A stretch of DNA of 64,000 bases from the NCBI GenBank assembly GCA_963765675.1, contig CAVXXK010000001.1, positions 800,001 through 864,000 of the forward strand, read 5' to 3'. A program made the translations under genes and the position numbers. Below the pieces are notes generated by a model. That model was not told the origin of the DNA and ran no database searches. It worked only from the letters and a program-made list of their open reading frames with translations. Positions 23,075 through 39,485 of the stretch are shown here, piece after piece. The first letter of the stretch is position 1. The number at the start of each line of letters is the position of its first letter. Source of the stretch: an uncultured delta proteobacterium (lineage in GTDB: Bacteria; Desulfobacterota; Binatia; Binatales; Binataceae).

Positions 23075-23642
23075 TCTCAGTTGTGATCATCATGGTGGCG
23101 GCTGGATCCGCCGGGACGCGCCTGGGTTTCTCGCCGGTCCATCGACGCCACAACCGTTTCAGCCCGCGCGCCAAGCGACGGAGCATTCGAGTCGAGGAGC
23201 CAGGCGATTGGAGCTCTGCGGGCGGCTCGCTGATCCTCGGACCAAACGCAGGGCACGGTCCTGCAGCGAAGGTCGCCGCGCGCAGCGAGCTTTCTGGCTC
23301 TGGCAGCGGGCGGCCGACATAATCGAGTGTAACGATCGAGCCCGGACGATCATTCACACGAAAGCACCACTTGCAGCGCACACATGTGTATAGATACGGC
23401 CGCGATTTCAAGCTTCCGGATCTCGGCACAGCCTCGATTGCAAAGCTGTGCCGAGCCTCGCGTGGTGCGAACGCATCGCGCGTCTTACGCGCGGCCGGCT
23501 TTTCGGATCTCTCCGTTCGCGGTTCGCTCTGATATTGGAATGGAGTGGGGACAAACTCGGTCAGTGGATAGACCCAAGAAAGCGGAATATCGCCCGCTTT
23601 CGTAACCGGCCACACGGCTCGAACTTCCCGACGCGGCTTCAT
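23075..23642 (-). CDS. Hypothetical protein with a CxxC...C motif; the frame runs on into the mauA remnant (ORF stop at 22860)
   Basis: RBS GAGAAGG, ATG at 23642, YTCVRCKW...GPCPAF; sigma54-type promoter upstream. Confidence 0.55.
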
Positions 23643-23698
23643 TTTTGCGCCTTCTCGTTGGTGAGGGACGTGACGGCCGGCACCACACCCGACTTAAA

Positions 23699-23714
23699 CG
23701 CAAATACTGCGCCG
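23699..23714 (-). promoter_or_regulatory. Putative sigma54 (-24/-12) promoter
   Basis: Minus strand CGGCGC-AGTAT-TTGCG. Confidence 0.5.
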
Positions 23715-23889
23715 GATGTCGGTCAGTATTCGCCGGCCACAGACCGGCATAAGCTTCGGCGGAAAATCTTCAATCAAATTGCGAGAATTACTTCCGACCC
23801 TGTCACCGGCGCCGGCTAATGCGGTTCTCCTGATTGGCAACCTTTTTCGGTTGAGCTGGGCGCGCAGCGCAGAATGAATTGCCGTGACG

Positions 23890-23971
23890 TTTCAGCTTGA
23901 ACGACTATGCGTGCTTCATCGCCAGGAAAGTCAGACAACTCCAGAGAAATCCGCCCGGCACAGGCGATGCT
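23890..23971 (+). promoter_or_regulatory. Putative activator site plus sigma54 promoter of the P-II-like gene
   Basis: TTTCA-GCT-TGAAC at 23890; CGGCAC-AGGCG-ATGCT at 23956. Confidence 0.55.
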
Positions 23972-24076
23972 CTAGTCTCTTTTCATCGGCTGCTTTCCTC
24001 CGACTGGGGCCGATTTGAATTGGTCAGTTTGCAGAATACTCATACTCTTTTGTGCAGAAGGCTCGGTGATCATCAA

Positions 24077-24463
24077 ATGAAGAAAGTAGAAGCGATTCTG
24101 AGCCCGGACATTTTTGAAACGATCAGGGATATTCTCATCAGCCGCGGCTGCCGCGATTTCGTGGTCTCCGAGGTTAGAGGCGCGCCGGGCAATGGAGCGC
24201 AGCCAAAGCGTTTTCGCGGCATCGACTATACTCCTGATGAACCGAGACTGAAGCTCGAGACTGTTGTCGCCGACGAAGATGCGATGGCCACGGCGCACGT
24301 TATCCTGGCCGCATCGCATAGCGTCGAGGTATCAGGGCAAATGGTTACGGTGTGTGCGCTCGAGCGCGTCATTTCGATAGGTATATTAAATCTGGATGAC
24401 CAACCTATTGATTCTCGCGCCAGCTTCCGCAGAGAGTTACTGAGTAATGGAAGCCGTTCATAG
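24077..24463 (+). CDS. Non-canonical P-II-like protein
   Basis: MKKVEAIL.P...VSEVRG...FRGIDY...PRLKLETVVADE resembles GlnB; GFGRQ and GDGKIF are absent. Confidence 0.75.
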   Translation: MKKVEAILSPDIFETIRDILISRGCRDFVVSEVRGAPGNGAQPKRFRGIDYTPDEPRLKLETVVADEDAMATAHVILAASHSVEVSGQMVTVCALERVISIGILNLDDQPIDSRASFRRELLSNGSRS

Positions 24464-24677
24464 TGAAATACGCTTAATCAGCTTCTGCTGAAGCCATCAG
24501 CGCGTGCTCGCAAACGCCGCAGCACATCAGTCTCCATAGCCCGTAGATTTCCTGTAAGTACAACGACTTTTCGCGAAGCACCGGTCTTGCAATCCGGTTT
24601 GGGTTCGCAACGCGTCGGCCCCCGTGGTCACCGCGTCTGCGTAGGCGACCCAAAACGGATTTAGAGGAATCAAGACT

Positions 24678-26489
24678 ATGTGGCTGCTTCCGATCTCGAT
24701 GCTTGTAACTACGACCCTGCTGGCCATTCCATTGAGCCGTTATCTCGCCTGGATCATGAATGGCGAATATCGTCCGCCGCGGTGGTTGCAATCGATCGAG
24801 ACTCGGCTTGATCTCGGTCAGCAGGACTGGAAGCAGTACACAGTCGCGTTGCTGATCTTCAACTTCCTGCTGTTCGTGTACACCTACGTGGTTTTGGCAG
24901 TGCAACCGCTGATGCCGTTGAACCAGCTCCATCGCGGAATGCTGGCGCCGACCACGATCGTCCATGCGGCGATCTCGTTGTGTACCAACACTGATCTGCA
25001 ACACTGGTCCGGAGATTCGCAGTTTTCCAATTTCAGCCAGATCTTCGCGATGATCGCGAATTTCTTCTTCTCCGCGTCAATAGGGTTTTGCGCGCTCACC
25101 GCGATCATTCGTGCGCTTCGTGATGGTCCTCGCAAGGTTGGCAGCTTTTTCCTGGATATGTGGCGGGTCATGATTTACATGTTCCTGCCGATCGGTTTCG
25201 TTCTCTCCATCGCCTTCCTGCAACAGGGCTCTCCTATGACTTTCCGGGCGGCTCAGATGGTGTCCACCGTTGAGCCGGCCTCGATGGGCACCACTGATAA
25301 CGGGCAGGCGAAGCAGCAGACGGTCGTGCTAGGTCCTCTCGCCGCATTCGTGCCGATGAAACAGCGCGGCACCAACGGCGGAGGGTTCTACGGCGCCAAC
25401 TCGGCGCATCCTTTCGAAAACCCCACGGCGTTCACAAATTTCCTGTCGAGCGTCGGAATGATGCTGTTCCCGTTCGCATTGGTGCTGATGTACGGCCGCA
25501 TGCTGCACAAGCAGCGCCATGCGTGGGTGATTTTCTCGGTGATGATGGTGTTGATGATCGGTACCGTCATCTGGTCCGTGTACTTCGATACCCATAAACC
25601 GAACCCCGGCCTCACCGCACACCCAGTCGAGCGGAAATTCGAGTTGGACACGGCAGGCGGAAAGAAAGCGATCGTTCTGCCTGCTGTCGCGGGACTGCCG
25701 GTCGATCAGCATCTGGGAAATCTGGAAAGCAAAGAGCTTCGTTTTGGAACTTCCGCCGGCGCAACTTTCGCGGCGATGACGGTCGACGTCACGTGCGGAG
25801 CGGTAAACTGCGCTCACGATAGTCTGAATCCTATTGCCGCGTTGTCCCCGATGGCTGGAATGTGGGTGAACTGCATATACGGCGGCAAGGGCGTGGGCAT
25901 GATCAACCTGCTCGTGTTCCTGATTATCGGAGTATTCGTAGCCGGCCAGATGGTCGGTCGAACACCCGAATATCTGGGCAAGAAGATCGGCGGACGCGAA
26001 ATGAAGCTGGCGATGATCGGTCTCCTGATTCACCCGATCATGATTCTCGGGCCTACCGGACTTTTCGCTGCAACTAGTTGGGGCCAAAAGGCCGAGTTCA
26101 ACCCGGGTGCTCACGGCTTCTCGGAAGTCATGTACGAGTTCTCCTCGGCGTCGGCCAATAACGGATCCGGTTTCGAGGGGTTGGGGGACACGTGGGGTCT
26201 CAACGACAACCCGAGTCCTGCGCCAACCAGCAGGGCGTGGGATTTCGCAACCGTCATCGTAATAACTATCAGTCGATTTATCCCGATAATCGCTCCCATC
26301 GCTCTAGCTGCAGGCATGGGTGCGAAGAAGACCGCCCCGTTCGGACTGGGTACGATGCGCGACGATACGGTTACATTCGCCCTACTGCTGATCGGAACGA
26401 TCGTGATTATCGGCGCGCTGCTGTTTCTTCCCGTAGCGGCTCTTGGACCGATTGCGGAGCATCTGGGGCCAATCCCCTTTGGCGGGTAG
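24678..26489 (+). CDS. kdpA: Potassium-transporting ATPase subunit A, divergent paralogue 1
   Basis: TNTD, GTNGGG, ANSAHPFENP, KELRFG, TCGAV, GRTPEYLGKK, NNGSGF, LGPIAEHL. Confidence 0.92.
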   Translation: MWLLPISMLVTTTLLAIPLSRYLAWIMNGEYRPPRWLQSIETRLDLGQQDWKQYTVALLIFNFLLFVYTYVVLAVQPLMPLNQLHRGMLAPTTIVHAAISLCTNTDLQHWSGDSQFSNFSQIFAMIANFFFSASIGFCALTAIIRALRDGPRKVGSFFLDMWRVMIYMFLPIGFVLSIAFLQQGSPMTFRAAQMVSTVEPASMGTTDNGQAKQQTVVLGPLAAFVPMKQRGTNGGGFYGANSAHPFENPTAFTNFLSSVGMMLFPFALVLMYGRMLHKQRHAWVIFSVMMVLMIGTVIWSVYFDTHKPNPGLTAHPVERKFELDTAGGKKAIVLPAVAGLPVDQHLGNLESKELRFGTSAGATFAAMTVDVTCGAVNCAHDSLNPIAALSPMAGMWVNCIYGGKGVGMINLLVFLIIGVFVAGQMVGRTPEYLGKKIGGREMKLAMIGLLIHPIMILGPTGLFAATSWGQKAEFNPGAHGFSEVMYEFSSASANNGSGFEGLGDTWGLNDNPSPAPTSRAWDFATVIVITISRFIPIIAPIALAAGMGAKKTAPFGLGTMRDDTVTFALLLIGTIVIIGALLFLPVAALGPIAEHLGPIPFGG

Positions 26490-26520
26490 GCTGCCGAGAA
26501 CGAGTAATGTTGCATACACC

Positions 26521-26624
26521 TTTCAAAATGAAATGTTCACGAGTGCAGAACTCATCGAGGGCAAGAGTCCAGAGGCGATTTTACCGACAATCCGTGGTTG
26601 CGGCTCAGTGGCATCGCTGTTGCT
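26521..26624 (+). promoter_or_regulatory. Activator inverted repeat plus sigma54 promoter of the kdpFABC operon
   Basis: TTTCA-AAA-TGAAA at 26521; TGGCAT-CGCTG-TTGCT at 26609-26624. Confidence 0.7.
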
Positions 26625-26699
26625 CAATTAGAATTTCTGAGGGTCTCTTCAAAACTGAATCCCTAAGAAAACAGATAGCGGCTCTGGAGAAATAGGACG

Positions 26700-26795
26700 A
26701 TGGACTTAATGATTTGGATCCCGATCACATTTTTTCTGGGCGTAGGAACGATGGTGCTCTGTTATGCCTTCCTGATCGCCTGCGAGAAAATCTGA
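26700..26795 (+). CDS. 31-aa single-TM peptide upstream of kdpF
   Basis: MDLMIWIPITFFLGVGTMVLCYAFLIACEKI*, AGGA RBS; too short for the ORF track. Confidence 0.7.
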   Translation: MDLMIWIPITFFLGVGTMVLCYAFLIACEKI

Positions 26796-26806
26796 GGAAC
26801 CGCACC

Positions 26807-26887
26807 ATGATCTATCTTACCGCAATAGTCTGTGTGTTGTTATTTGTGTATCTGACTGTCGCGTTGGTTCGCCCCGAATGGTTCTAG
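26807..26887 (+). CDS. kdpF: Kdp ATPase subunit F
   Basis: MIYLTAIVCVLLFVYLTVALVRPEWF*, typical YL..AL.RPE.F ending, RBS GAGGA. Confidence 0.9.
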   Translation: MIYLTAIVCVLLFVYLTVALVRPEWF

Positions 26888-26906
26888 GCGTCCGGCTTTT
26901 GAGGTA

Positions 26907-28736
26907 ATGACGATGACTCAATATTGGCTTCTTCCGGCCGCGTTAATCGTGGTGGCCATCGCGGTTTCCATTCCATTGAGCAAATACGCAGCGTGGATAA
27001 TGGAAGGCCATTACCATCCGCCGCGGCTGTTCGCCTGGTTTGAGAAAAAGCTCGACAGCGGACCGCAGGGCTGGAAACAGTACACTGCGGCGCTGCTGAT
27101 CTTTAATCTCGTGCTGTTCGTCTGGGGTTACCTGGTGCTTGCGCTACAGCCATTCACGCCGCTCAACCCTCGGGGTTTGGGCATGTTGGCGCCAACAACC
27201 ATCTTCAATACCGTCACGTCATTCATGACGAATACCAACCTGCAGGATTATGCAGGCGATGTTAATTTCTCAAACTTTACCCAGATATTTTTTACAATCT
27301 CTAATCAGTATATTTCGGCGGCAGTCGGGTTTTGTGCACTTGCGGCGATAATCAGGGCTTTTCGCGGTGAATCGAAAGTCGGGAATTTCTTCGTCGATAT
27401 GTGGCGCGTCCTGATCTACATGTTCGTCCCCGCCGCGATTCTGGTGGGCGTGCTCTTCATTCAGCAAGGGATGCCGATGACATTTCAGAGCACTGTGCAG
27501 GCGACCACGGTCGAACCTGGAGCGATGGGTACCGACGACAAGGGAGCGGCGAAGCAGCAGACCATCGTAATGGGGCCGGTCGCCGCGATGATACCGATCA
27601 AACAGCTCGGCACCAATGGTGGCGGGTTTTTCGGCGCCAATTCCGCTCAGCCATATGAAAATCCCAGCGCATGGACGAACTTCCTCACCTGCCTAGCGAT
27701 GATGATTTTTCCGTTCACGCTGGTGCTGATGTTCGGCCGAATGCTCAGAAAAATGCTGCACGCTATCGTTATCTACGCGGTGATGTTGACCCTGATGGTG
27801 GGGATGATCGTGTGGGCGATTTACTTCGAGCTGAAGCCAAACCCAGGCCTGACAGCTCATCCGACCAGCGTGACTTATAAGATTCCCAGCGCTACCGCGG
27901 CTGGCGGATTCCGGGAGATCAAGATTCCAACCGTTGCCGGACTGCCGGTTGATCAGCACAGCGGGAACCTGGAGGGCAAGGAACTGCGTTTCGGTACTGT
28001 CGCAGGACCAACCTTTGCGGCGTTAACCACTGCGGTTACCTGCGGCGCCGTCGACTGCGCGCACGATAGCTTGAACCCGCTGACGGGACTCTCGCCGATG
28101 GTGGGCATGTGGCTGAACTGCGTATTCGGCGGCAAGGGTGTCGGAATGATTAATCTCCTGCTCTTCCTGATCATCGGCGTATTTATTGCGGGCCAGATGG
28201 TGGGGAGATCGCCCGAATACCTGGGCCGGAAAGTCGGCGCACGCGAGGTCAAGCTGGCGGTTATCGCGCTCTTGGTTCATCCACTGATGATCCTCGGGCC
28301 CACCGGAGTGTTCGCCGCTACCAACTGGGGAATCAAAGCGGAATTAAATCCCGCCGCGCATGGCTTCTCGGAGGTTATGTATCAATTCAGCTCGGCATCG
28401 GCGAACAACGGTTCGGGTTTCGAGGGACTTGGCGACACCTGGGGATTTAACGCCAACCCCAATCCAGCTCCGACCAGCCAGGCTTTGGACATAGCGGCAG
28501 GATTGGTCATGCTGTTCAGCCGATATCTACCCATCGTCGCGCCGATTGCGATGGCGGCTTTCCTCGGGATCAAGAAGGAGGCGCCGTATGGGCTCGGGAC
28601 CATGCGCGACGACACGTTGACATTTTATTTCCTGTTGCTCGGCACCATCGTGATTATCGGAGCGCTGCTGTTTCTGCCGGTCGCAGCGCTTGGTCCGTTA
28701 GCGGACCACCTGGGTCCGATACCGTTTGGTGGATGA
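26907..28736 (+). CDS. kdpA: Potassium-transporting ATPase subunit A, canonical paralogue 2
   Basis: SFMTNTNLQ, KQLGTNGGG, TTAVTCGAV, NNGSGF. Confidence 0.95.
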   Translation: MTMTQYWLLPAALIVVAIAVSIPLSKYAAWIMEGHYHPPRLFAWFEKKLDSGPQGWKQYTAALLIFNLVLFVWGYLVLALQPFTPLNPRGLGMLAPTTIFNTVTSFMTNTNLQDYAGDVNFSNFTQIFFTISNQYISAAVGFCALAAIIRAFRGESKVGNFFVDMWRVLIYMFVPAAILVGVLFIQQGMPMTFQSTVQATTVEPGAMGTDDKGAAKQQTIVMGPVAAMIPIKQLGTNGGGFFGANSAQPYENPSAWTNFLTCLAMMIFPFTLVLMFGRMLRKMLHAIVIYAVMLTLMVGMIVWAIYFELKPNPGLTAHPTSVTYKIPSATAAGGFREIKIPTVAGLPVDQHSGNLEGKELRFGTVAGPTFAALTTAVTCGAVDCAHDSLNPLTGLSPMVGMWLNCVFGGKGVGMINLLLFLIIGVFIAGQMVGRSPEYLGRKVGAREVKLAVIALLVHPLMILGPTGVFAATNWGIKAELNPAAHGFSEVMYQFSSASANNGSGFEGLGDTWGFNANPNPAPTSQALDIAAGLVMLFSRYLPIVAPIAMAAFLGIKKEAPYGLGTMRDDTLTFYFLLLGTIVIIGALLFLPVAALGPLADHLGPIPFGG

Positions 28737-28786: not shown

Positions 28787-30950
28787 ATGGAAGCACTTAA
28801 AGACGCGCCGATACCGGAACTGAACATCGATCCGCCGCTACCTGCACCACCGCGACGCTCGCGTGCGCAGGCGCTGTTCGCGCCGGAGCTCGTGCGCCCG
28901 GCGATCAAGGAAGCATTCTTGATGCTTCGTCCCGAGGTTCAATGGCGCAACCCGGTGATGTTCGTGGTCGAAATTGGCGCCGTGCTCACGGCTCTGTTTA
29001 TCATCCAGGCGGCGCTGGGGGCCTCATCCAGCCAGGTATCAGTCAACTATTTCATTGCCCTCGATTTCTGGTTGTGGCTGACAGTACTATTCGCGAACTT
29101 TGCGACCGCGCTGGCGGAGGCCCGCGGCCGCGCGCAAACTGAATCGCTGCGCCGGGCCCGCACCGATACGCCGGCGTACCGTCTCAAGGGCGCGGACATC
29201 ATCGAAGAGATTCTGGCTTCCGACCTTCATCCGGGCGACCGGGTGGTCGTGAAGGCTGGCCAGGTAATTCCGGGTGACGGCGAAATCATCGAGGGGATCG
29301 CTTCGGTGGACGAGTCGGCAATCACCGGCGAATCCGCTCCAGTGATCCGCGAGTCGGGGGGTGATCGGTCAGGAGTGACAGGGGGCACTCGAGTGATCTC
29401 AGACAGTATAGTTGTGAGAATCACCGCGGCGGCCGGGGAATCATTTCTCGATCGAATGATCGCGCTGGTCGAGGGCGCGGTTCGTCAGCGCACGCCTAAT
29501 GAAATTGCGCTCAGCCTGGTGCTGACGGCGTTCACGCTCATCTTTCTGATCGTCGTCGTTCCGCTGTGGCCGATGGCGTTGAATGCGGAAATATACATGA
29601 TGAGCTATCTCGGCATCACCGAGCCGCTCAAGAGTCTCGGAACCGATGTTCCAACCCTTGTCGCACTTCTAGTCTGTCTGATTCCTACTACAATTGGCGC
29701 CTTGCTCGCGGCGATCGGCATCGCGGGCATGGATCGAGCCCTGCAGGCCAATATCCTCGCTAAGAGCGGCAAGGCGGTCGAGACGGCGGGCGATATCGAC
29801 ACCGTGTTACTCGACAAGACTGGCACGATCACGATGGGCAATAGGCATGCGACTGAGTTTGTTCCAGTTGGAAGGTATACTGCGCTCGAGCTCGGCCGGC
29901 TGGCTGCGATGGCTTCGATCGCGGATGAGACGCCCGAAGGCAAAACTATAGTCAAACTCTATTTCGAACGAGGCGGCGGAGCCGGCGATCTCAACGTTCC
30001 GAAAGGAGCAGAGTTCGTTCCGTTTTCCGCGCAAACGCGGATGAGTGGAGTCGACCTCCCGGGCGGCAGGACGATTCGCAAAGGCGCACCTGACGCTGTG
30101 CTTCGCTTTGTTGAACGTCAGTCGATGGCGGTGCCCGCAGATCTGCAGCCGACCGTGAACTCGATCGCATCACTGGGCGCGACGCCGCTGGTAGTTGCCG
30201 ACGGTGCGAGCATCGCGGGCGTTGTGGTGCTCTCAGACGTCCTCAAAGCCGGAATCAGCGAGCGCCTCGAGCGCCTGCGCAAGATGGGCGTGACGGAGCG
30301 TGATGATCACCGGAGACAACCCGCTTACCGCCGCGACGATCGCGAAACAGGCCGGGGTTGATGATTTCGTTGCCCAGTGCACGCCGGAGTCGAAGCTCGC
30401 CTACATCAGGAACGAACAGGCGGCGGGCAAGCTGGTTGCGATGGTCGGTGACGGCACCAACGACGCGCCCGCGCTCGCACAGGCCGATGTGGGCCTCGCA
30501 ATGAACTCGGGCACACAAGCCGCCAAGGAAGCAGGCAACATGGTGGACCTGGACAGCAATCCCACCAAGTTGCTCGAGGTCGTCGAGATTGGAAAGCAGC
30601 TACTCATGACGCGCGGCTCGTTGACCACGTTTTCGATTGCAAACGACGTTGCCAAATATTTCGCGATCGTGCCGGCGCTGTTCGCAGGGACGCTACCCTG
30701 GCTGAAGGCGATGGACGTGATGCATCTGCATTCGCCGATCTCGGCCATACTCTCGGCCGTGATCTTCAATGCGGTAATCATTCCATTACTCATTCCGATC
30801 GCTTTGCGTGGCGTTCAGTATCGCCCGCTGGGCGCCGATGCGTTGCTCAGGCGAAACCTGCTGGTCTGGGGGCTCGGCGGCGTTCTTCTGCCGTTCGTAG
30901 GAATAAAGCTGATCGACATGATCATGGTGGCCGGGCACTTGGTTGCCTGA
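28787..30950 (+). CDS. kdpB: Potassium-transporting ATPase subunit B, one frameshift at ~30293
   Basis: [49 protein letters not shown]; removing A30293 restores [12 protein letters not shown]. Confidence 0.93.
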
Positions 30951-31995: not shown

Positions 31996-32065
31996 CTCGG
32001 CAGCCTTGTACACCTGCGGGTGTGCTTCAGGAGCCTCCGTTGTGCCTCGAACGAGGTCGTCACAG

Positions 32066-33130
32066 ATGGATGCATTGGTCTCCAATGACGAGAACCGCAG
32101 GACTGCCGCGATCATCGAAAGTCTAGAAGTAGGAGCAATCCTGCTCGACCGCAATGGAATTGTCGTCCATATAAACGAATTGGCCGCACTCATCCTGGGT
32201 ATTGAGCGGGAAGGAGTCATTGATCATCCTTTTGAAAGGCTCGAGGTTGATAGCCATCATTACCTCCGAGTTCGCGCCGCGCTGCAACGGATCAGCGACT
32301 ATCCAGCCGGTGAAAAACAGATCGAGGTGAGTCTTCATGTGCGCGGCCGCGAACACAACTATCTGCTGAAACTCGGAGAGTTGCGGCTCCCGGACGGTAC
32401 TCTGTTTGGAAACATAATTGCGTTTCACGACCTTACCTATATCCGCGACAAGGATCGCGCACGCTCGAACCTGGTGGCCTCTCTCTCGCATGAGCTCAAA
32501 ACTCCTCTGACTTCGCTCTCGCTTGCAGTTGAGCTTCTCCAGCGGACGGCCATCGATCCCAGACAGCGCGAAACCATCGAAACCATTGGCGAAGATTTGG
32601 CTCGAATCCGTGATTTGTCCGATAGCTTGCTCAATATTGCGCGTGACGAAAGCGCTTCAATTGCAGTCCTGACTGTAAACTTCGACTTCGCGAAAATGGT
32701 GACTTCCGTAGTCAAGAAATTCGCCTTGCAGGCTGCGCAAAGAAGCGTATTCCTTCGCGTACATGCAGGCGCTGAGCTCGAGACCTATGGCGATCCCGCC
32801 AAGTTGTCATGGGTTTTGTCTAATCTTATCGCTAACGCACTGCGCTACATTCCTGACGGCGGGACCATTGAAGTGTCCGCTGCGCGAGTGGGGCAATTGT
32901 TGCGGCTGTCGGTCTCGGACACCGGCCCAGGCATACCCTTGGAAATTCGCGATGTGATTTTTGAACGTCACACGCCGTGGCTTGCGGATAGCTTCGAGAG
33001 GGGACCCACTGGCCTCGGTCTGGAGATCACCAAGGAGATTGTCGAAGCGCACGGTGGGCGAATATTCCTCGAGGTCTCCGGGGAAGGGAGCACGTTTACG
33101 GTCGATCTTCCACAGTCGTGGCAGAAATAG
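32066..33130 (+). CDS. Cytoplasmic PAS-domain histidine kinase
   Basis: PAS-like N-terminus, SHELKTPLTS, NLIANALRY, DTGPGIP, TGLGL; no TM helices. Confidence 0.88.
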   Translation: MDALVSNDENRRTAAIIESLEVGAILLDRNGIVVHINELAALILGIEREGVIDHPFERLEVDSHHYLRVRAALQRISDYPAGEKQIEVSLHVRGREHNYLLKLGELRLPDGTLFGNIIAFHDLTYIRDKDRARSNLVASLSHELKTPLTSLSLAVELLQRTAIDPRQRETIETIGEDLARIRDLSDSLLNIARDESASIAVLTVNFDFAKMVTSVVKKFALQAAQRSVFLRVHAGAELETYGDPAKLSWVLSNLIANALRYIPDGGTIEVSAARVGQLLRLSVSDTGPGIPLEIRDVIFERHTPWLADSFERGPTGLGLEITKEIVEAHGGRIFLEVSGEGSTFTVDLPQSWQK

Positions 33131-34465
33131 ATGGCGAAACTTCTCGTCGTAGACGACGAAAAAAATATTCGACATGCCGTAGGAGAGTTCTTGCAATCCT
33201 GCGATCTCGAGACCTGTACGGCTGACAGTGGCCGTGAAGCTCTCGCCCTCATGGACCGCAGAGGCGCCTTCGACCTCGTCTTGACCGATTGGCGGATGGC
33301 CGAAATGAACGGCCTCGAACTGCTCAAGGCAATCAAGGAGAAATATCCAGACACTATAGTAATTCTGATGACGGCATACGGCACGGTCGGCAACGCCGTT
33401 GCCGCCATGAAGGCGGGGGCACACGACTATCTAACCAAACCCTTTACGCTCGATCAGATCCAACACACTATTGAACGCGCACTCGAGGTCAGAGAATTAC
33501 GCTCGCAGAATCGGGCACTTCGAAACTCAATGGAGGGTCTCCCGCTTCTCACCTCAAGCAGCCCGGTCTTTCGTTCGCTCATCGCAACGGCCCATGCGGC
33601 GGCTTCAAGCGATGCGACCATCTTGTTCACGGGAGAGAGCGGAACCGGAAAGAATGTTCTCGCGAGGCAGATACACGAATGGAGTTCGCGCCGCGAGCAT
33701 CCCTTCGTAATCGTCAACTGTACTACGCTTTCGGAGCATCTCCTGGAGAGTGAACTCTTCGGCCACGTAAAGGGCTCGTTCACCGGAGCGATCAAGGACA
33801 AACCCGGGCGCCTCGAAGCTGCAAATGGCGGTACGGTTTTTCTCGATGAAATCGCGGAATTGGCGCCCTCGCTGCAGATAAAGTTCTTACGTTTCTTACA
33901 GGAACAGCGATTTGAGCGGGTTGGCGGCGAGAAGACGATTGAGGTTGACGCACGCATCATCGCAGCGACCAACCGCAATCTTGAACAGGAGACCAGCTCG
34001 GGCCGTTTTCGCAACGATCTCTACTACCGATTGAACGTTATATCCGTGCGTGTTCCGGCATTGCGGGAGCGTCCGGAGGACATTTTGGTGCTGGCAGACA
34101 AACTGCTGACGGAAGCCGCAGCACGCAATCAGCGCTCCGGGTTACGCTTTTCGGAAGAGGCGCAGAAATCGCTCATCGCCTATGCATGGCCGGGTAATGT
34201 CCGCGAGCTGCGCAACGCGGTTGAACGCGCAGTCGCTTTGAGCCGCGGCACGGTCATACGCAAGGAGGATCTGCCTGACACCATTTTTCATGGCCACGGC
34301 ACAGGTGCCGGAGTACCCCCGGAAAACGCTAGCCTGGAACAAGTGGAGGAACAGCATATCAGGCGCGTGCTCTCGATTGCTCCGACCCTCGAGGACGCCG
34401 CCGCAACGCTAGGCATCGGGGTCGCCACCCTTTGGCGCAAGCGAAAGCGCTTTCAGATTGATTAA
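33131..34465 (+). CDS. Sigma54-dependent response regulator (NtrC/AtoC family)
   Basis: REC domain, GESGTGK, ESELFGHVKGSFTGA, FLDEI, WPGNVREL, C-terminal HTH. Confidence 0.95.
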   Translation: MAKLLVVDDEKNIRHAVGEFLQSCDLETCTADSGREALALMDRRGAFDLVLTDWRMAEMNGLELLKAIKEKYPDTIVILMTAYGTVGNAVAAMKAGAHDYLTKPFTLDQIQHTIERALEVRELRSQNRALRNSMEGLPLLTSSSPVFRSLIATAHAAASSDATILFTGESGTGKNVLARQIHEWSSRREHPFVIVNCTTLSEHLLESELFGHVKGSFTGAIKDKPGRLEAANGGTVFLDEIAELAPSLQIKFLRFLQEQRFERVGGEKTIEVDARIIAATNRNLEQETSSGRFRNDLYYRLNVISVRVPALRERPEDILVLADKLLTEAAARNQRSGLRFSEEAQKSLIAYAWPGNVRELRNAVERAVALSRGTVIRKEDLPDTIFHGHGTGAGVPPENASLEQVEEQHIRRVLSIAPTLEDAAATLGIGVATLWRKRKRFQID

Positions 34466-36198: not shown

Positions 36199-37039
36199 TT
36201 AGGCGAATGCGGGGAGGCGCACGGCGAAAATCTCGGCGTCGTCGGTGACCTCGAAGCGCTCGCCCGGGCTGAATGAATCCGTTCGCCACGCGCTGTGCGC
36301 ATCGAGAATCTCGCCGCTGGAAGTAGCTATTGAACCATGCAACAGAAACCTCAGTTCACCCGGCGTCGCGCCATCTCCGGTATGCGCCGCGCCGCGCGGC
36401 GCACGAATCATGGAAATCCCGATCCCGCGCTCGCCGAATACGCCGAGCCGTTTCACCTCGAAGCCTCCTGCGGCCGGCTGCCAGGTGAAATTATCAACGT
36501 TCATTATTTACCGGCTCTTCGAAACGCGGCGGCGGGTATTCGACCGGGCGTCCATTCACGTACTCCCAAATGGCCTCGTAGCCGTCGGCTCGCGCCGCAC
36601 GGCCGTCGCTGCTGGTACGCGTGAACACGCCTGCGTCAAACTGGCCGAGGTCGCACATTTTCTCGTAGCCGGAATTGAGCTGCTGATAGCTCATGAAGCC
36701 GTAACCGGACGCGCCGCCGATCTGCAGCACCAGCACGATCGATCCGGTCGTGTCCTTTTGCGGGCCGTAATAGGTTCCTTCGGGAAAATACCCGACCATC
36801 TGCGGCAGTAGATTTTTTCCCGGCGCAAAGTTCATCGAGCCTTCCAGGCACAGGCGAACCTGATCGAAGTTATGGCGATGCCGCGGCGTGTAGTAGTCGC
36901 CGACAGTACGCACGAGGCTCAATTCAAAATTATCCGACTCGCCCGCCGTCCCTTGGAGCAGACGCTTGAAATCGATTGCTCCCGAGCGATGACCAGAAAC
37001 CGGACCGTAGGTGAGCTGTTGGCCGTGCGCAATCAGCAT
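36199..37039 (-). CDS. Cupin-like hypothetical protein, frameshifted at ~36507
   Basis: YYTPRHRHNFDQVR, YFPEGTYYGPQ; removing one A joins EEPV-I-MNVDNF. Confidence 0.7.
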
Positions 37040-37182
37040 AGCGGCGGATTATCGCGACCGGCCACGACATGTCAAATGGCCAAACATTCATTCGCTCTGC
37101 CGTGGCGCGATCTCGATACGCCGACGCGGATCAGGCTTTTCCGTCGCGATAGCTGCTGGTTGTTAGTGCGCGGAACCGCGCG

Positions 37183-38925: not shown

Positions 38926-39027
38926 CGGCCCTCGAATCAAGCCTGATTAGTACAGCCCATCCGGTTTCGTCAACCCTGACTATTTTCTTTTTGTCTGATT
39001 CCTCCCCTGTTCTTCCACGGGGGAGGA

Positions 39028-39468
39028 TTAAAGGAGGGGGTGCAGCTTTTTTCGCGCGGGCTTGGCCTTGACCGACGCAGGCACCGTGCGCGGGCGGGCG
39101 GCAGCGAGACGTTTTGGCGCCGACATCAGGTAGCCGTCGTTCAGGATCGCCGCCAACTCGTCCCAGCGGACTTTCACGTCGAGGCGCACGCCAACCCATC
39201 CTTTGGGCCCGACATAGGGCGGCTTGAAAAATCGCTTGGGATCGGAGCCAACCAGGATCTCCTGCACCATCGCAGGTGCTTTGATCCACACGGCGACGTG
39301 TCCGCTGTTGTGATGATTGTTGTCCGTCATCGCGAACATCTTGCCGCCAACTCTGAAGGTGCATTCGCCCCACGCTTCCTTCTCAGTCGCCTCGGGAAGC
39401 GCGAGGCAGATCTCGCGCAAACGCTTTATCGCAGGATTGGAATCGTCGTATTTGCGAGGATGCGCCAT
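39028..39468 (-). CDS. MmcQ/YjbR family protein
   Basis: CLALPEATE, FRVGGKMFA, PPYVGPKGWVG. Confidence 0.88.
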   Translation of the reverse strand: MAHPRKYDDSNPAIKRLREICLALPEATEKEAWGECTFRVGGKMFAMTDNNHHNSGHVAVWIKAPAMVQEILVGSDPKRFFKPPYVGPKGWVGVRLDVKVRWDELAAILNDGYLMSAPKRLAAARPRTVPASVKAKPARKKLHPLL

Positions 39469-39485
39469 CTGTCACGCCTGCGCGA

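Follow-up and report, generated by a model that had tools for sequence, protein, structure and literature searches.

The window, a stretch of 64,000 nucleotides of contig CAVXXK010000001.1 from an uncultured member of the Binataceae (assembly GCA_963765675.1, positions 800,001 to 864,000), carries a kdp locus with two different kdpA genes ahead of a single kdpB and a single kdpC. All the genes lie on the forward strand, in the order P-II-like gene, kdpA1, sigma-54 box, gene for a 31-amino-acid (aa) peptide, kdpF, kdpA2, kdpB, kdpC, PAS histidine kinase gene and response regulator gene (Table 1). We are concerned here with kdpA1, whose product differs from the conventional KdpA2 at or beside three of the four motifs of the selectivity filter, and with what these differences may mean for the pump.

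KdpA1 and its filter motifs

The kdpA1 gene is, as the sequence-only reading had it, a full-length open reading frame (ORF), without internal stop. Its 603-aa product matches the Pfam family KdpA, PF03814, over residues 8-596 (E 1.2e-176; 588.5 bits, for a cutoff of 22.6) and the NCBIfam model TIGR00680 (477.1 bits, cutoff 387.7), and it also matches PDB chains of E. coli KdpA, at E 5.5e-91. An AlphaFold model built from a 70-sequence alignment (predicted local distance difference test 88.1, predicted template modelling score 0.89) was superimposed with Foldseek on the E. coli chain 5mrw_A, giving template modelling (TM) scores of 0.88/0.95, a root mean square deviation of 1.8 A and 34% identity. 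It displays the KdpA fold with its four repeats of pore helix and filter, the pore helices being placed at residues 91-102, 221-230, 358-370 and 478-492. G234, G374 and G496, which are the filter glycines G232, G345 and G468 of E. coli, are invariant in the 70-sequence alignment, KdpA1 included, as are N495 and S497; the NNGS loop is kept, and N104 and Q108 are invariant or nearly so. The motif GRTPEYLGKK aligns to E. coli residues 399-408, and its arginine, R428, nearly invariant in the alignment, is equivalent to E. coli R400, which we take to be the coupling-helix arginine that contacts KdpB in the structure published in 2017. KdpA1 is also encoded together with kdpF, kdpB and kdpC, as befits a KdpA. 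In KdpA1 the Kdp pump has one more copy of its ion-selecting subunit, and an intact one. A stand-alone channel of the superfamily of K+ transporters, comparable to TrkH or KtrB, was considered and rejected, the KtrB and TrkH chains reaching TM scores of only 0.41-0.51 by query. The neighbouring ORFs were scanned for domains, and none of the TrkA/KtrA type turned up. According to PMC6255902, KdpA alone gives no K+ uptake.

Table 1. Features of the kdp locus in the window (positions are those of the window)
Feature	Position	Strand	Remarks
Weak sigma-54-like -24/-12 box	23956..23971	+	P-II-like gene about 105 nt downstream; 2 mismatches, GG and GC kept
P-II-like gene, 128 aa	24077..24463	+	Pfam P-II PF00543, E 1.7e-8; directly upstream of kdpA1
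kdpA1	24678..26489	+	603 aa, full-length KdpA; H96/D106/V369/D370 subfamily
End of pore helix 1 with filter loop 1	24963..24995	+	H96 codon 24963-24965; helix 91-102 in the model
Arg230 codon CGC	25365..25367	+	ends pore helix 2; equivalent to E. coli L228
V369-D370 (end of pore helix 3), then V371-T372-C373 of loop 3	25782..25796	+	helix 358-370 in the model
Filter loop 4, N494-N495-G496-S497	26157..26168	+	as in KdpA2
Sigma-54 -24/-12 box TGGCAT-N5-TTGCT	26609..26624	+	one mismatch; follows the kdpA1 stop, ahead of the downstream operon
31-aa hydrophobic peptide gene	26700..26795	+	directly upstream of kdpF
kdpF, 26 aa	26807..26887	+	TIGR02115 26.2 bits (cutoff 26.85); NF011342 E 2.4e-6
kdpA2, 609 aa	26907..28736	+	conventional filter motifs
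kdpB	28787..30950	+	two frames, split by an extra A at 30293
kdpC, 350 aa	30943..31995	+	insert of about 140 aa between two conserved halves
PAS histidine kinase and sigma-54-dependent response regulator	32006..34465	+	NtrB/NtrC-like architecture

KdpA1 and KdpA2 are identical at 401 of 605 positions (66%), and the motif differences quoted in the sequence-only reading are all present. Filter loop 1 is IVHAAISLCTNTD in KdpA1 and IFNTVTSFMTNTN in KdpA2, nucleotides 24984-24995 encoding exactly T103-N104-T105-D106; loop 2 is KQRGTNGGG versus KQLGTNGGG, loop 3 is TVDVTCGAV versus TTAVTCGAV, and loop 4, ANNGSGF, is the same in both. Alignment to 6hra_A equates the residues H96, D106, R230, V369, D370 and C373 with E. 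coli N104, N114, L228, T340, A341 and C344, respectively. H96 lies within pore helix 1 of the model, and R230 and D370 end pore helices 2 and 3, i.e. they occupy equivalent positions in adjacent repeats. D106 would fall level with G234, G374 and G496, the invariant glycines of the other three loops, by a register that is counted from the DSSP helix ends of the predicted model and could be off by one.

The occurrence of these residues was surveyed in the 119 closest database homologues of KdpA1, which are 70-98% identical to it, and in a diverse set (Table 2). The latter was drawn from a search of 50%-identity clusters, which returned 747 clusters at E <= 1e-30, and consists of those of the best 150 representatives that are full-length, 89 proteins in all. 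Of the 119 closest homologues, 114 have H96, D106, V369 and D or N at 370 together. The combinations at positions 96/106/369/370/373 are HDVDD (66 proteins), HDVDC (34), HDVND (12) and HDVNC (2). A quick maximum likelihood tree was also computed (LG+G4, 60 rows), with support from the Shimodaira-Hasegawa-like approximate likelihood ratio test (SH-aLRT) only and with its long outgroup branches flagged; KdpAs of 55% identity or less were omitted from it, except for four outgroup rows, as were two duplicate rows. It places KdpA1 in a clade of 17 rows, all of which have H96 and TNTD (99% SH-aLRT), and KdpA2 in a separate clade of six Binataceae rows (100% SH-aLRT), next to a Myxococcota pair. The alignment of homologues that had been proposed as a check on the substitutions came out in their favour: TNTD and TVD-V-T-[C/D]-G co-occur, in 114 of 119 sequences, and the group is monophyletic. 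Position by position, the counts bear out the His, both Asp and the Val but not the Arg. KdpA1 belongs to a conserved subfamily, present mainly in Binataceae and Acidobacteriota of soil and peat metagenomes; the source names given among the closest homologues are Binataceae, Binatus, Acidiferrales and Terriglobales. KdpA1 and KdpA2 are old paralogues and not the outcome of a recent tandem duplication.

Table 2. Residues at the variable filter positions (KdpA1 numbering; numbers of proteins)
Position	119 closest homologues	89 diverse KdpAs
96	H 116	N 68, H 13
106	D 114	N 59, D 22
230	L 115, I 4, R 0	L 69, I 7, F 5, V 4, S, M and A one each, R 0
369	V 119	T 81, V 2
370	D 105, N 14	A 43, G 12, S 9, D 6
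373	D 78, C 41	N 34, T 25, S 13, C 8, D 1

D106 and D370 recur in diverse and distant KdpAs: the two new Asp are common natural alternatives, and only V369 and the four-residue combination are specific to the subfamily. D370 occurs in 13 of 28 distant KdpAs from the loci compared, including the Burkholderia and Paraburkholderia copies and the third KdpA of the source genome (G000:C1:1069041-1070708), which is 39% identical to KdpA1 and has its own adjacent kdpB. This third protein is of the conventional short type, yet it has Asp at the position of D370. The KdpAs of Burkholderia multivorans and Paraburkholderia oxyphila, which belong with KdpA1 to a wider clade of about 605-aa proteins, have D370 but Thr at 369. 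The proposal that the substitutions point to an altered selectivity is not supported by these numbers (D106 in 22/89, H96 in 13/89, D370 in 6/89 and in the 13/28 just mentioned); against it stand also the retention of the filter glycines and of NNGS, and the presence of A1-type proteins elsewhere as sole KdpA of kdpB-kdpC operons. A regulatory subunit had also been envisaged, and nothing was found in its favour. Thus, of what had been read from the sequence, the observation itself and the subfamily have held up, and the inference on selectivity was overstated.

KdpA1 resembles E. coli KdpA (5MRW, 6HRA, 7NNP) in its fold, four repeats, glycines, entrance Gln (Q108, i.e. Q116) and GRTPEYLGKK motif. 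It differs by about 46 additional residues, with an extra hairpin region predicted at about 305-350, by having H96, D106, V369 and D370 instead of N104, N114, T340 and A341, by having its gene as an additional copy in front of a complete operon, and by the presence of sigma-54/NtrC-like control genes instead of KdpD/KdpE. KdpA2 and its Binataceae orthologues are of the same length class as KdpA1 and have the same operon partners; they are distinguished by the conventional N...TNTN and TTA motifs, by their separate clade and by their place directly after kdpF. Another case of two paralogous channel-like K+ subunits in one cell, reported to have distinct transport properties, is that of E. coli TrkG and TrkH (PMC9898762). 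These, however, are Trk channels under TrkA, their genes are not adjacent and they share no P-type ATPase.

Gene order and selection in related genomes

The tandem A1/A2 arrangement of the window was found in three related loci, L032, L033 and L035. Seven loci (L076, L034, L036, L037, L039, L044 and the first operon of L040) have A1 followed by the peptide gene, kdpF, kdpB and kdpC, without A2, and two others (L043 and L041) have the order peptide, kdpF, A1, kdpB, kdpC. Operons with A2 only are present in L073, L074 and L075; short A1 remnants subsist upstream in L074 and L075, none in L073. It follows from the A1-only operons that the A1 type can be the only KdpA encoded at the locus of an otherwise complete pump. 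Either paralogue can be lost.

The long-term ratio of nonsynonymous to synonymous substitution rates (dN/dS) is 0.03-0.07 for both paralogues, dS being saturated in many pairs; two unsaturated pairs gave 0.049 for A1 and 0.061 for A2. Between the window and L032, A1 shows 15 nonsynonymous and 28 synonymous codon differences, versus 0 and 25 for A2 (Fisher p 0.0005). The derived nonsynonymous changes of A1 number six in the window lineage and six in the L032 lineage, and A2 has none in either. In this genus the constraint on A1 has thus been relaxed, or has changed, and A1 has of late evolved faster than A2, which fits the loss of A1 in congeners.

Synonymous differences between the window and L032 affect 5 of 128 codons in the P-II-like gene, 28 of 603 in A1 and 25 of 609 in A2, and 90 of 501 in kdpB and 69 of 444 in the response regulator gene. 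Because they are far fewer in the first three genes than in kdpB and the response regulator gene, a recent recombination of the block P-II-A1-kdpF-A2 (24077-28736) is suggested. An extra kdpA beside a complete operon was also seen in Terriglobia (L052) and in Myxococcota (L060), in each case as a lineage-specific duplication. Two Nitrospirota loci, L057 and L059, have a kdpA-kdpC unit plus a separate kdpF-A-B(-C) operon; the unit of L057 is without kdpB, and in L059 frameshifted pieces of kdpB come after the kdpC of the unit.

Arg230 and the interrupted kdpB

The Leu to Arg change in loop 2 had been recognized as a single-nucleotide change: the codon is CGC in the window and CTC in the 98%-identical orthologue of L032, with G and T, respectively, at position 25366. 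Arg is present at residue 230 in none of 292 other KdpAs (0/119, 0/84 and 0/89), which have only L, I, F, V, M, S or A there. Position 25366 is T in all four Logan contigs that cover it, from four runs of four studies; these contigs are from related strains, the best run sharing 41% of sampled words with the source strain. With no Arg among the 119 closest homologues and Leu read in related strains of four studies, this residue has to be struck from the traits of the KdpA1 family.

The second anomaly is the A that splits kdpB into two frames. It stands in a non-homopolymer context, GTG[A]CGG, and is missing in L032, in L073 and in every covering contig of three of the runs (X1, X3 and X7), the fourth run having no coverage there. 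A comparison of the window with two relatives, G003 and G009, for insertions and deletions brought out one clear extra frameshift, a single-base insertion at 36507 that splits a gene at 36202-37048 on the reverse strand, which in G009 (L081) is one ORF of 282 aa. Two more candidate frameshifts, at 39470 and 48001, turned out to be gene boundaries. The insertion at 36507 makes errors of this kind plausible in the source assembly; substitution errors should be rare in it, since the KdpA2 protein is the same as its L032 orthologue over 609 codons. Arg230 is private to the source assembly, and is either a base-call error or a strain-private, probably damaging, mutation; the same two readings, assembly error or strain-specific damage, apply to the frameshift in kdpB. 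The early suspicion that the Arg could be an error fits this privacy, with which a real mutation is also compatible.

If both anomalies are artefacts of assembly or base calling, the true A1 is a standard member of the subfamily with Leu230. We regard this as a serious possibility, if somewhat less than an even one: the covering contigs of four independent studies all read Leu and lack the extra kdpB base where they cover it, and the other single-base insertion of the assembly, at 36507, also breaks a gene that is intact in a relative. On the other hand, the 100% identity of the A2 protein to its orthologue implies that substitution errors must be rare, and the contigs compared are those of related strains and not of the source strain. 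The latter reservation bears equally on the opposite reading, in which the source strain is losing kdpA1, and perhaps the whole kdpF-A2-B-C locus, Arg230 being inactivating, the frameshift real and K+ pumped by the third kdp locus of the genome. We hold such decay to be unlikely. It would account for an Arg that is absent from the 292 other KdpAs, at a pore-helix position that is always hydrophobic, for an insertion outside any homopolymer, and for the A1 remnants in L074 and L075 and the absence of A1 from L073; a third KdpA with an adjacent kdpB does exist, and the six derived nonsynonymous changes of A1 in the window lineage, with none in A2, argue against random base-call errors. But the A1 ORF has kept its full length, its recent dN/dS of 0.17 is well below 1, and the further insertion at 36507 makes indel errors a plausible source of the frameshift. 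Arg230 is the most striking change, and to interpret either it or the broken kdpB would be premature before a check of the reads.

A proposed role for KdpA1 and its neighbours

It is probable, in our opinion, that KdpA1 is a genuine K+-binding, channel-like subunit of the Kdp P-type ATPase, from a conserved subfamily, and a paralogous alternative to A2. Its family, fold and motifs are established by the results above; its partnership with KdpF, KdpB and KdpC we infer from the gene order in relatives. Because all the glycines and the T/N positions are kept, the filter formed by backbone carbonyls would be unchanged. Replacement of Asn by Asp is isosteric. Given an unchanged filter and an isosteric exchange, the acidic substitutions would act electrostatically, tuning the apparent affinity for K+ at the entrance and the inner end of the filter, and would not admit a new ion. 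KdpA1 has no kdpB or kdpC of its own in the source genome and would be transcribed together with the P-II-like gene, a separate sigma-54 promoter driving the unit peptide-kdpF-kdpA2-kdpB-kdpC; for this putative promoter speak the conservation of the box at 26609-26624 and the sigma-54 activator encoded downstream. A1 would then most likely compete with A2 for the same KdpF, KdpB and KdpC: one engine with two alternative filter subunits.

The mutants of E. coli KdpA offer a partial parallel. According to PMC12629597, Q116R has a lower apparent affinity, Q116E is wild-type-like and Q116H is pH-dependent, and only G232D loosens the selectivity, to Rb+ and NH4+. Taken with PMC6255902, they indicate that the apparent affinity is set by the charge at the entrance, and that Rb+ and NH4+ can be let through once a filter loop contains an Asp. 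What these mutants have in common with KdpA1 is a change of charge at or beside the filter. The changes in KdpA1, however, are natural, they affect other positions and leave the glycines intact, and D106 replaces an Asn, not a Gly. An L228R mutant described in PMC8385062 is one of KdpB, not KdpA. Our literature search found no paper on the subfamily, on these natural filter variants, on paralogous or tandem kdpA genes or on two kdpA genes before one kdpB, although older mutagenesis papers may list mutants at these positions.

Several points weigh against this interpretation. That A1 assembles with the KdpB and KdpC encoded downstream is predicted from the gene order of relatives only, and K+ transport by the subfamily is predicted from family, fold and motifs. 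The box ahead of the P-II-like gene is a weak sigma-54 match. In 78 of the 119 closest homologues loop 3 holds yet another Asp, in place of C373, and D106 may sit, if the modelled register is right, at the pseudo-symmetric position of G232, where an Asp broadens the specificity of the E. coli protein. Lastly, both paralogues have been retained, under strong long-term purifying selection, across genomes about 15% apart in the A1 protein; the two would thus not be simply redundant, and their properties may differ by more than a tuning of charge.

A more radical proposal is that the A1-type filter changes the ion, for instance to NH4+ or Rb+ besides K+, or shifts the working range to low pH, so that two different filters would serve one KdpB engine. 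To us this is improbable. It is true that the register of D106, as modelled, is that of the glycine whose E. coli mutant G232D carries Rb+ and NH4+ (PMC12629597), and that long-term purifying selection has acted on both paralogues where both are kept. In 10 of 13 loci a P-II-like hit precedes the A1-clade gene, and the regulators are NtrB/NtrC-like; record titles of the relatives and run labels speak of peat, bog, soil and mine drainage, and a preprint (bioRxiv 10.1101/2025.11.06.686915) reports induction of kdpABC at low pH in an acidophile. However, E. coli natively has Asn, not Gly, at the position of D106, and the isosteric Asp is found there in 22 of the 89 diverse clusters; every filter glycine is intact. 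The regulators are not specific to A1 either, since in L034 and L036 a kinase gene of the same type comes after a conventional second kdp operon, located directly behind the A1-type operon. According to PMC6255902, the only mutations found for KdpFABC are such as add transport of Rb+ and NH4+, and none of the mutations named in the passages of PMC12629597 and PMC6255902 is at an A1 position. Evidence for a new ion of KdpA1 was not found. A still bolder version, which assigns to A1, with the P-II-family gene and NtrB/NtrC-like sigma-54 control, the filter of an NH4+ or NH4+/K+ importer for acidic, nitrogen-poor soils, and to A2 that of the K+ pump, strikes us as very remote. Returning to a K+-selecting A1, an adaptation of this type of subunit to acid soils is plausible by analogy, in view of the habitat labels of the relatives and of the induction of kdpABC at low pH in the acidophile.

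The mechanistic literature that we found on KdpFABC deals only with the complex of E. coli and with a few mutants made in the laboratory. The subfamily provides natural material for the same questions, with an Asp at a non-glycine position of the filter, an Asp ending pore helix 3 and often a third Asp in loop 3, as do the genomes in which two different KdpAs precede a single KdpB and KdpC. If it is true that the subunits are swapped on one engine, then bacteria of K+-poor acidic soils could retune their pump without duplicating it, and this would constitute a clean natural test of how the electrostatics of the filter sets affinity.

As to the neighbouring genes, the assignment of the P-II-like protein relies on the Pfam match (Table 1) and on a structure match to P-II clusters of the ESM Atlas (TM 0.76/0.85); its scores with the NCBIfam P-II models are far under the cutoff. 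The protein is the same in L032. The box at 23956..23971 is a tentative candidate for the promoter of this gene and kdpA1; in L034, L039 and L074 the P-II-like gene is likewise preceded by a similar box, and L076, where no P-II-like gene was found, has one upstream of kdpA1. Over the whole window, sigma-54 matches with two mismatches or less are not above chance (19 versus 23.8 expected). A box like the downstream one lies 82-91 nt ahead of the peptide gene in six of 15 regions scanned (the window, L032, L035, L076, L073 and L075), and in two cases it is a perfect consensus. A scan of 23400-27000 for sigma-70 promoters and terminators gave nothing above chance.

The peptide gene, 210 nt away from kdpA1, has tblastn matches of 48-97% identity in related loci and accompanies kdpF across the clade of about 605-aa KdpAs; no NCBIfam family matched the peptide, which may be a fifth small subunit of the pump. 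KdpC matches positions 3-103 of its profile with residues 15-113 and positions 99-184 with residues 251-344. It is nearly twice the usual length, and the aligned length is similar throughout the clade, including Burkholderia and Paraburkholderia. The PAS kinase and sigma-54 regulator occupy the place expected for KdpD/KdpE, and the pair is found downstream of kdpC in L032, L033, L035 and L076 as well. Finally, a repeat of about 55 bp at about 38993-39047, found at 84-94% identity in many places on several contigs of G009, is probably a small dispersed repeat element.

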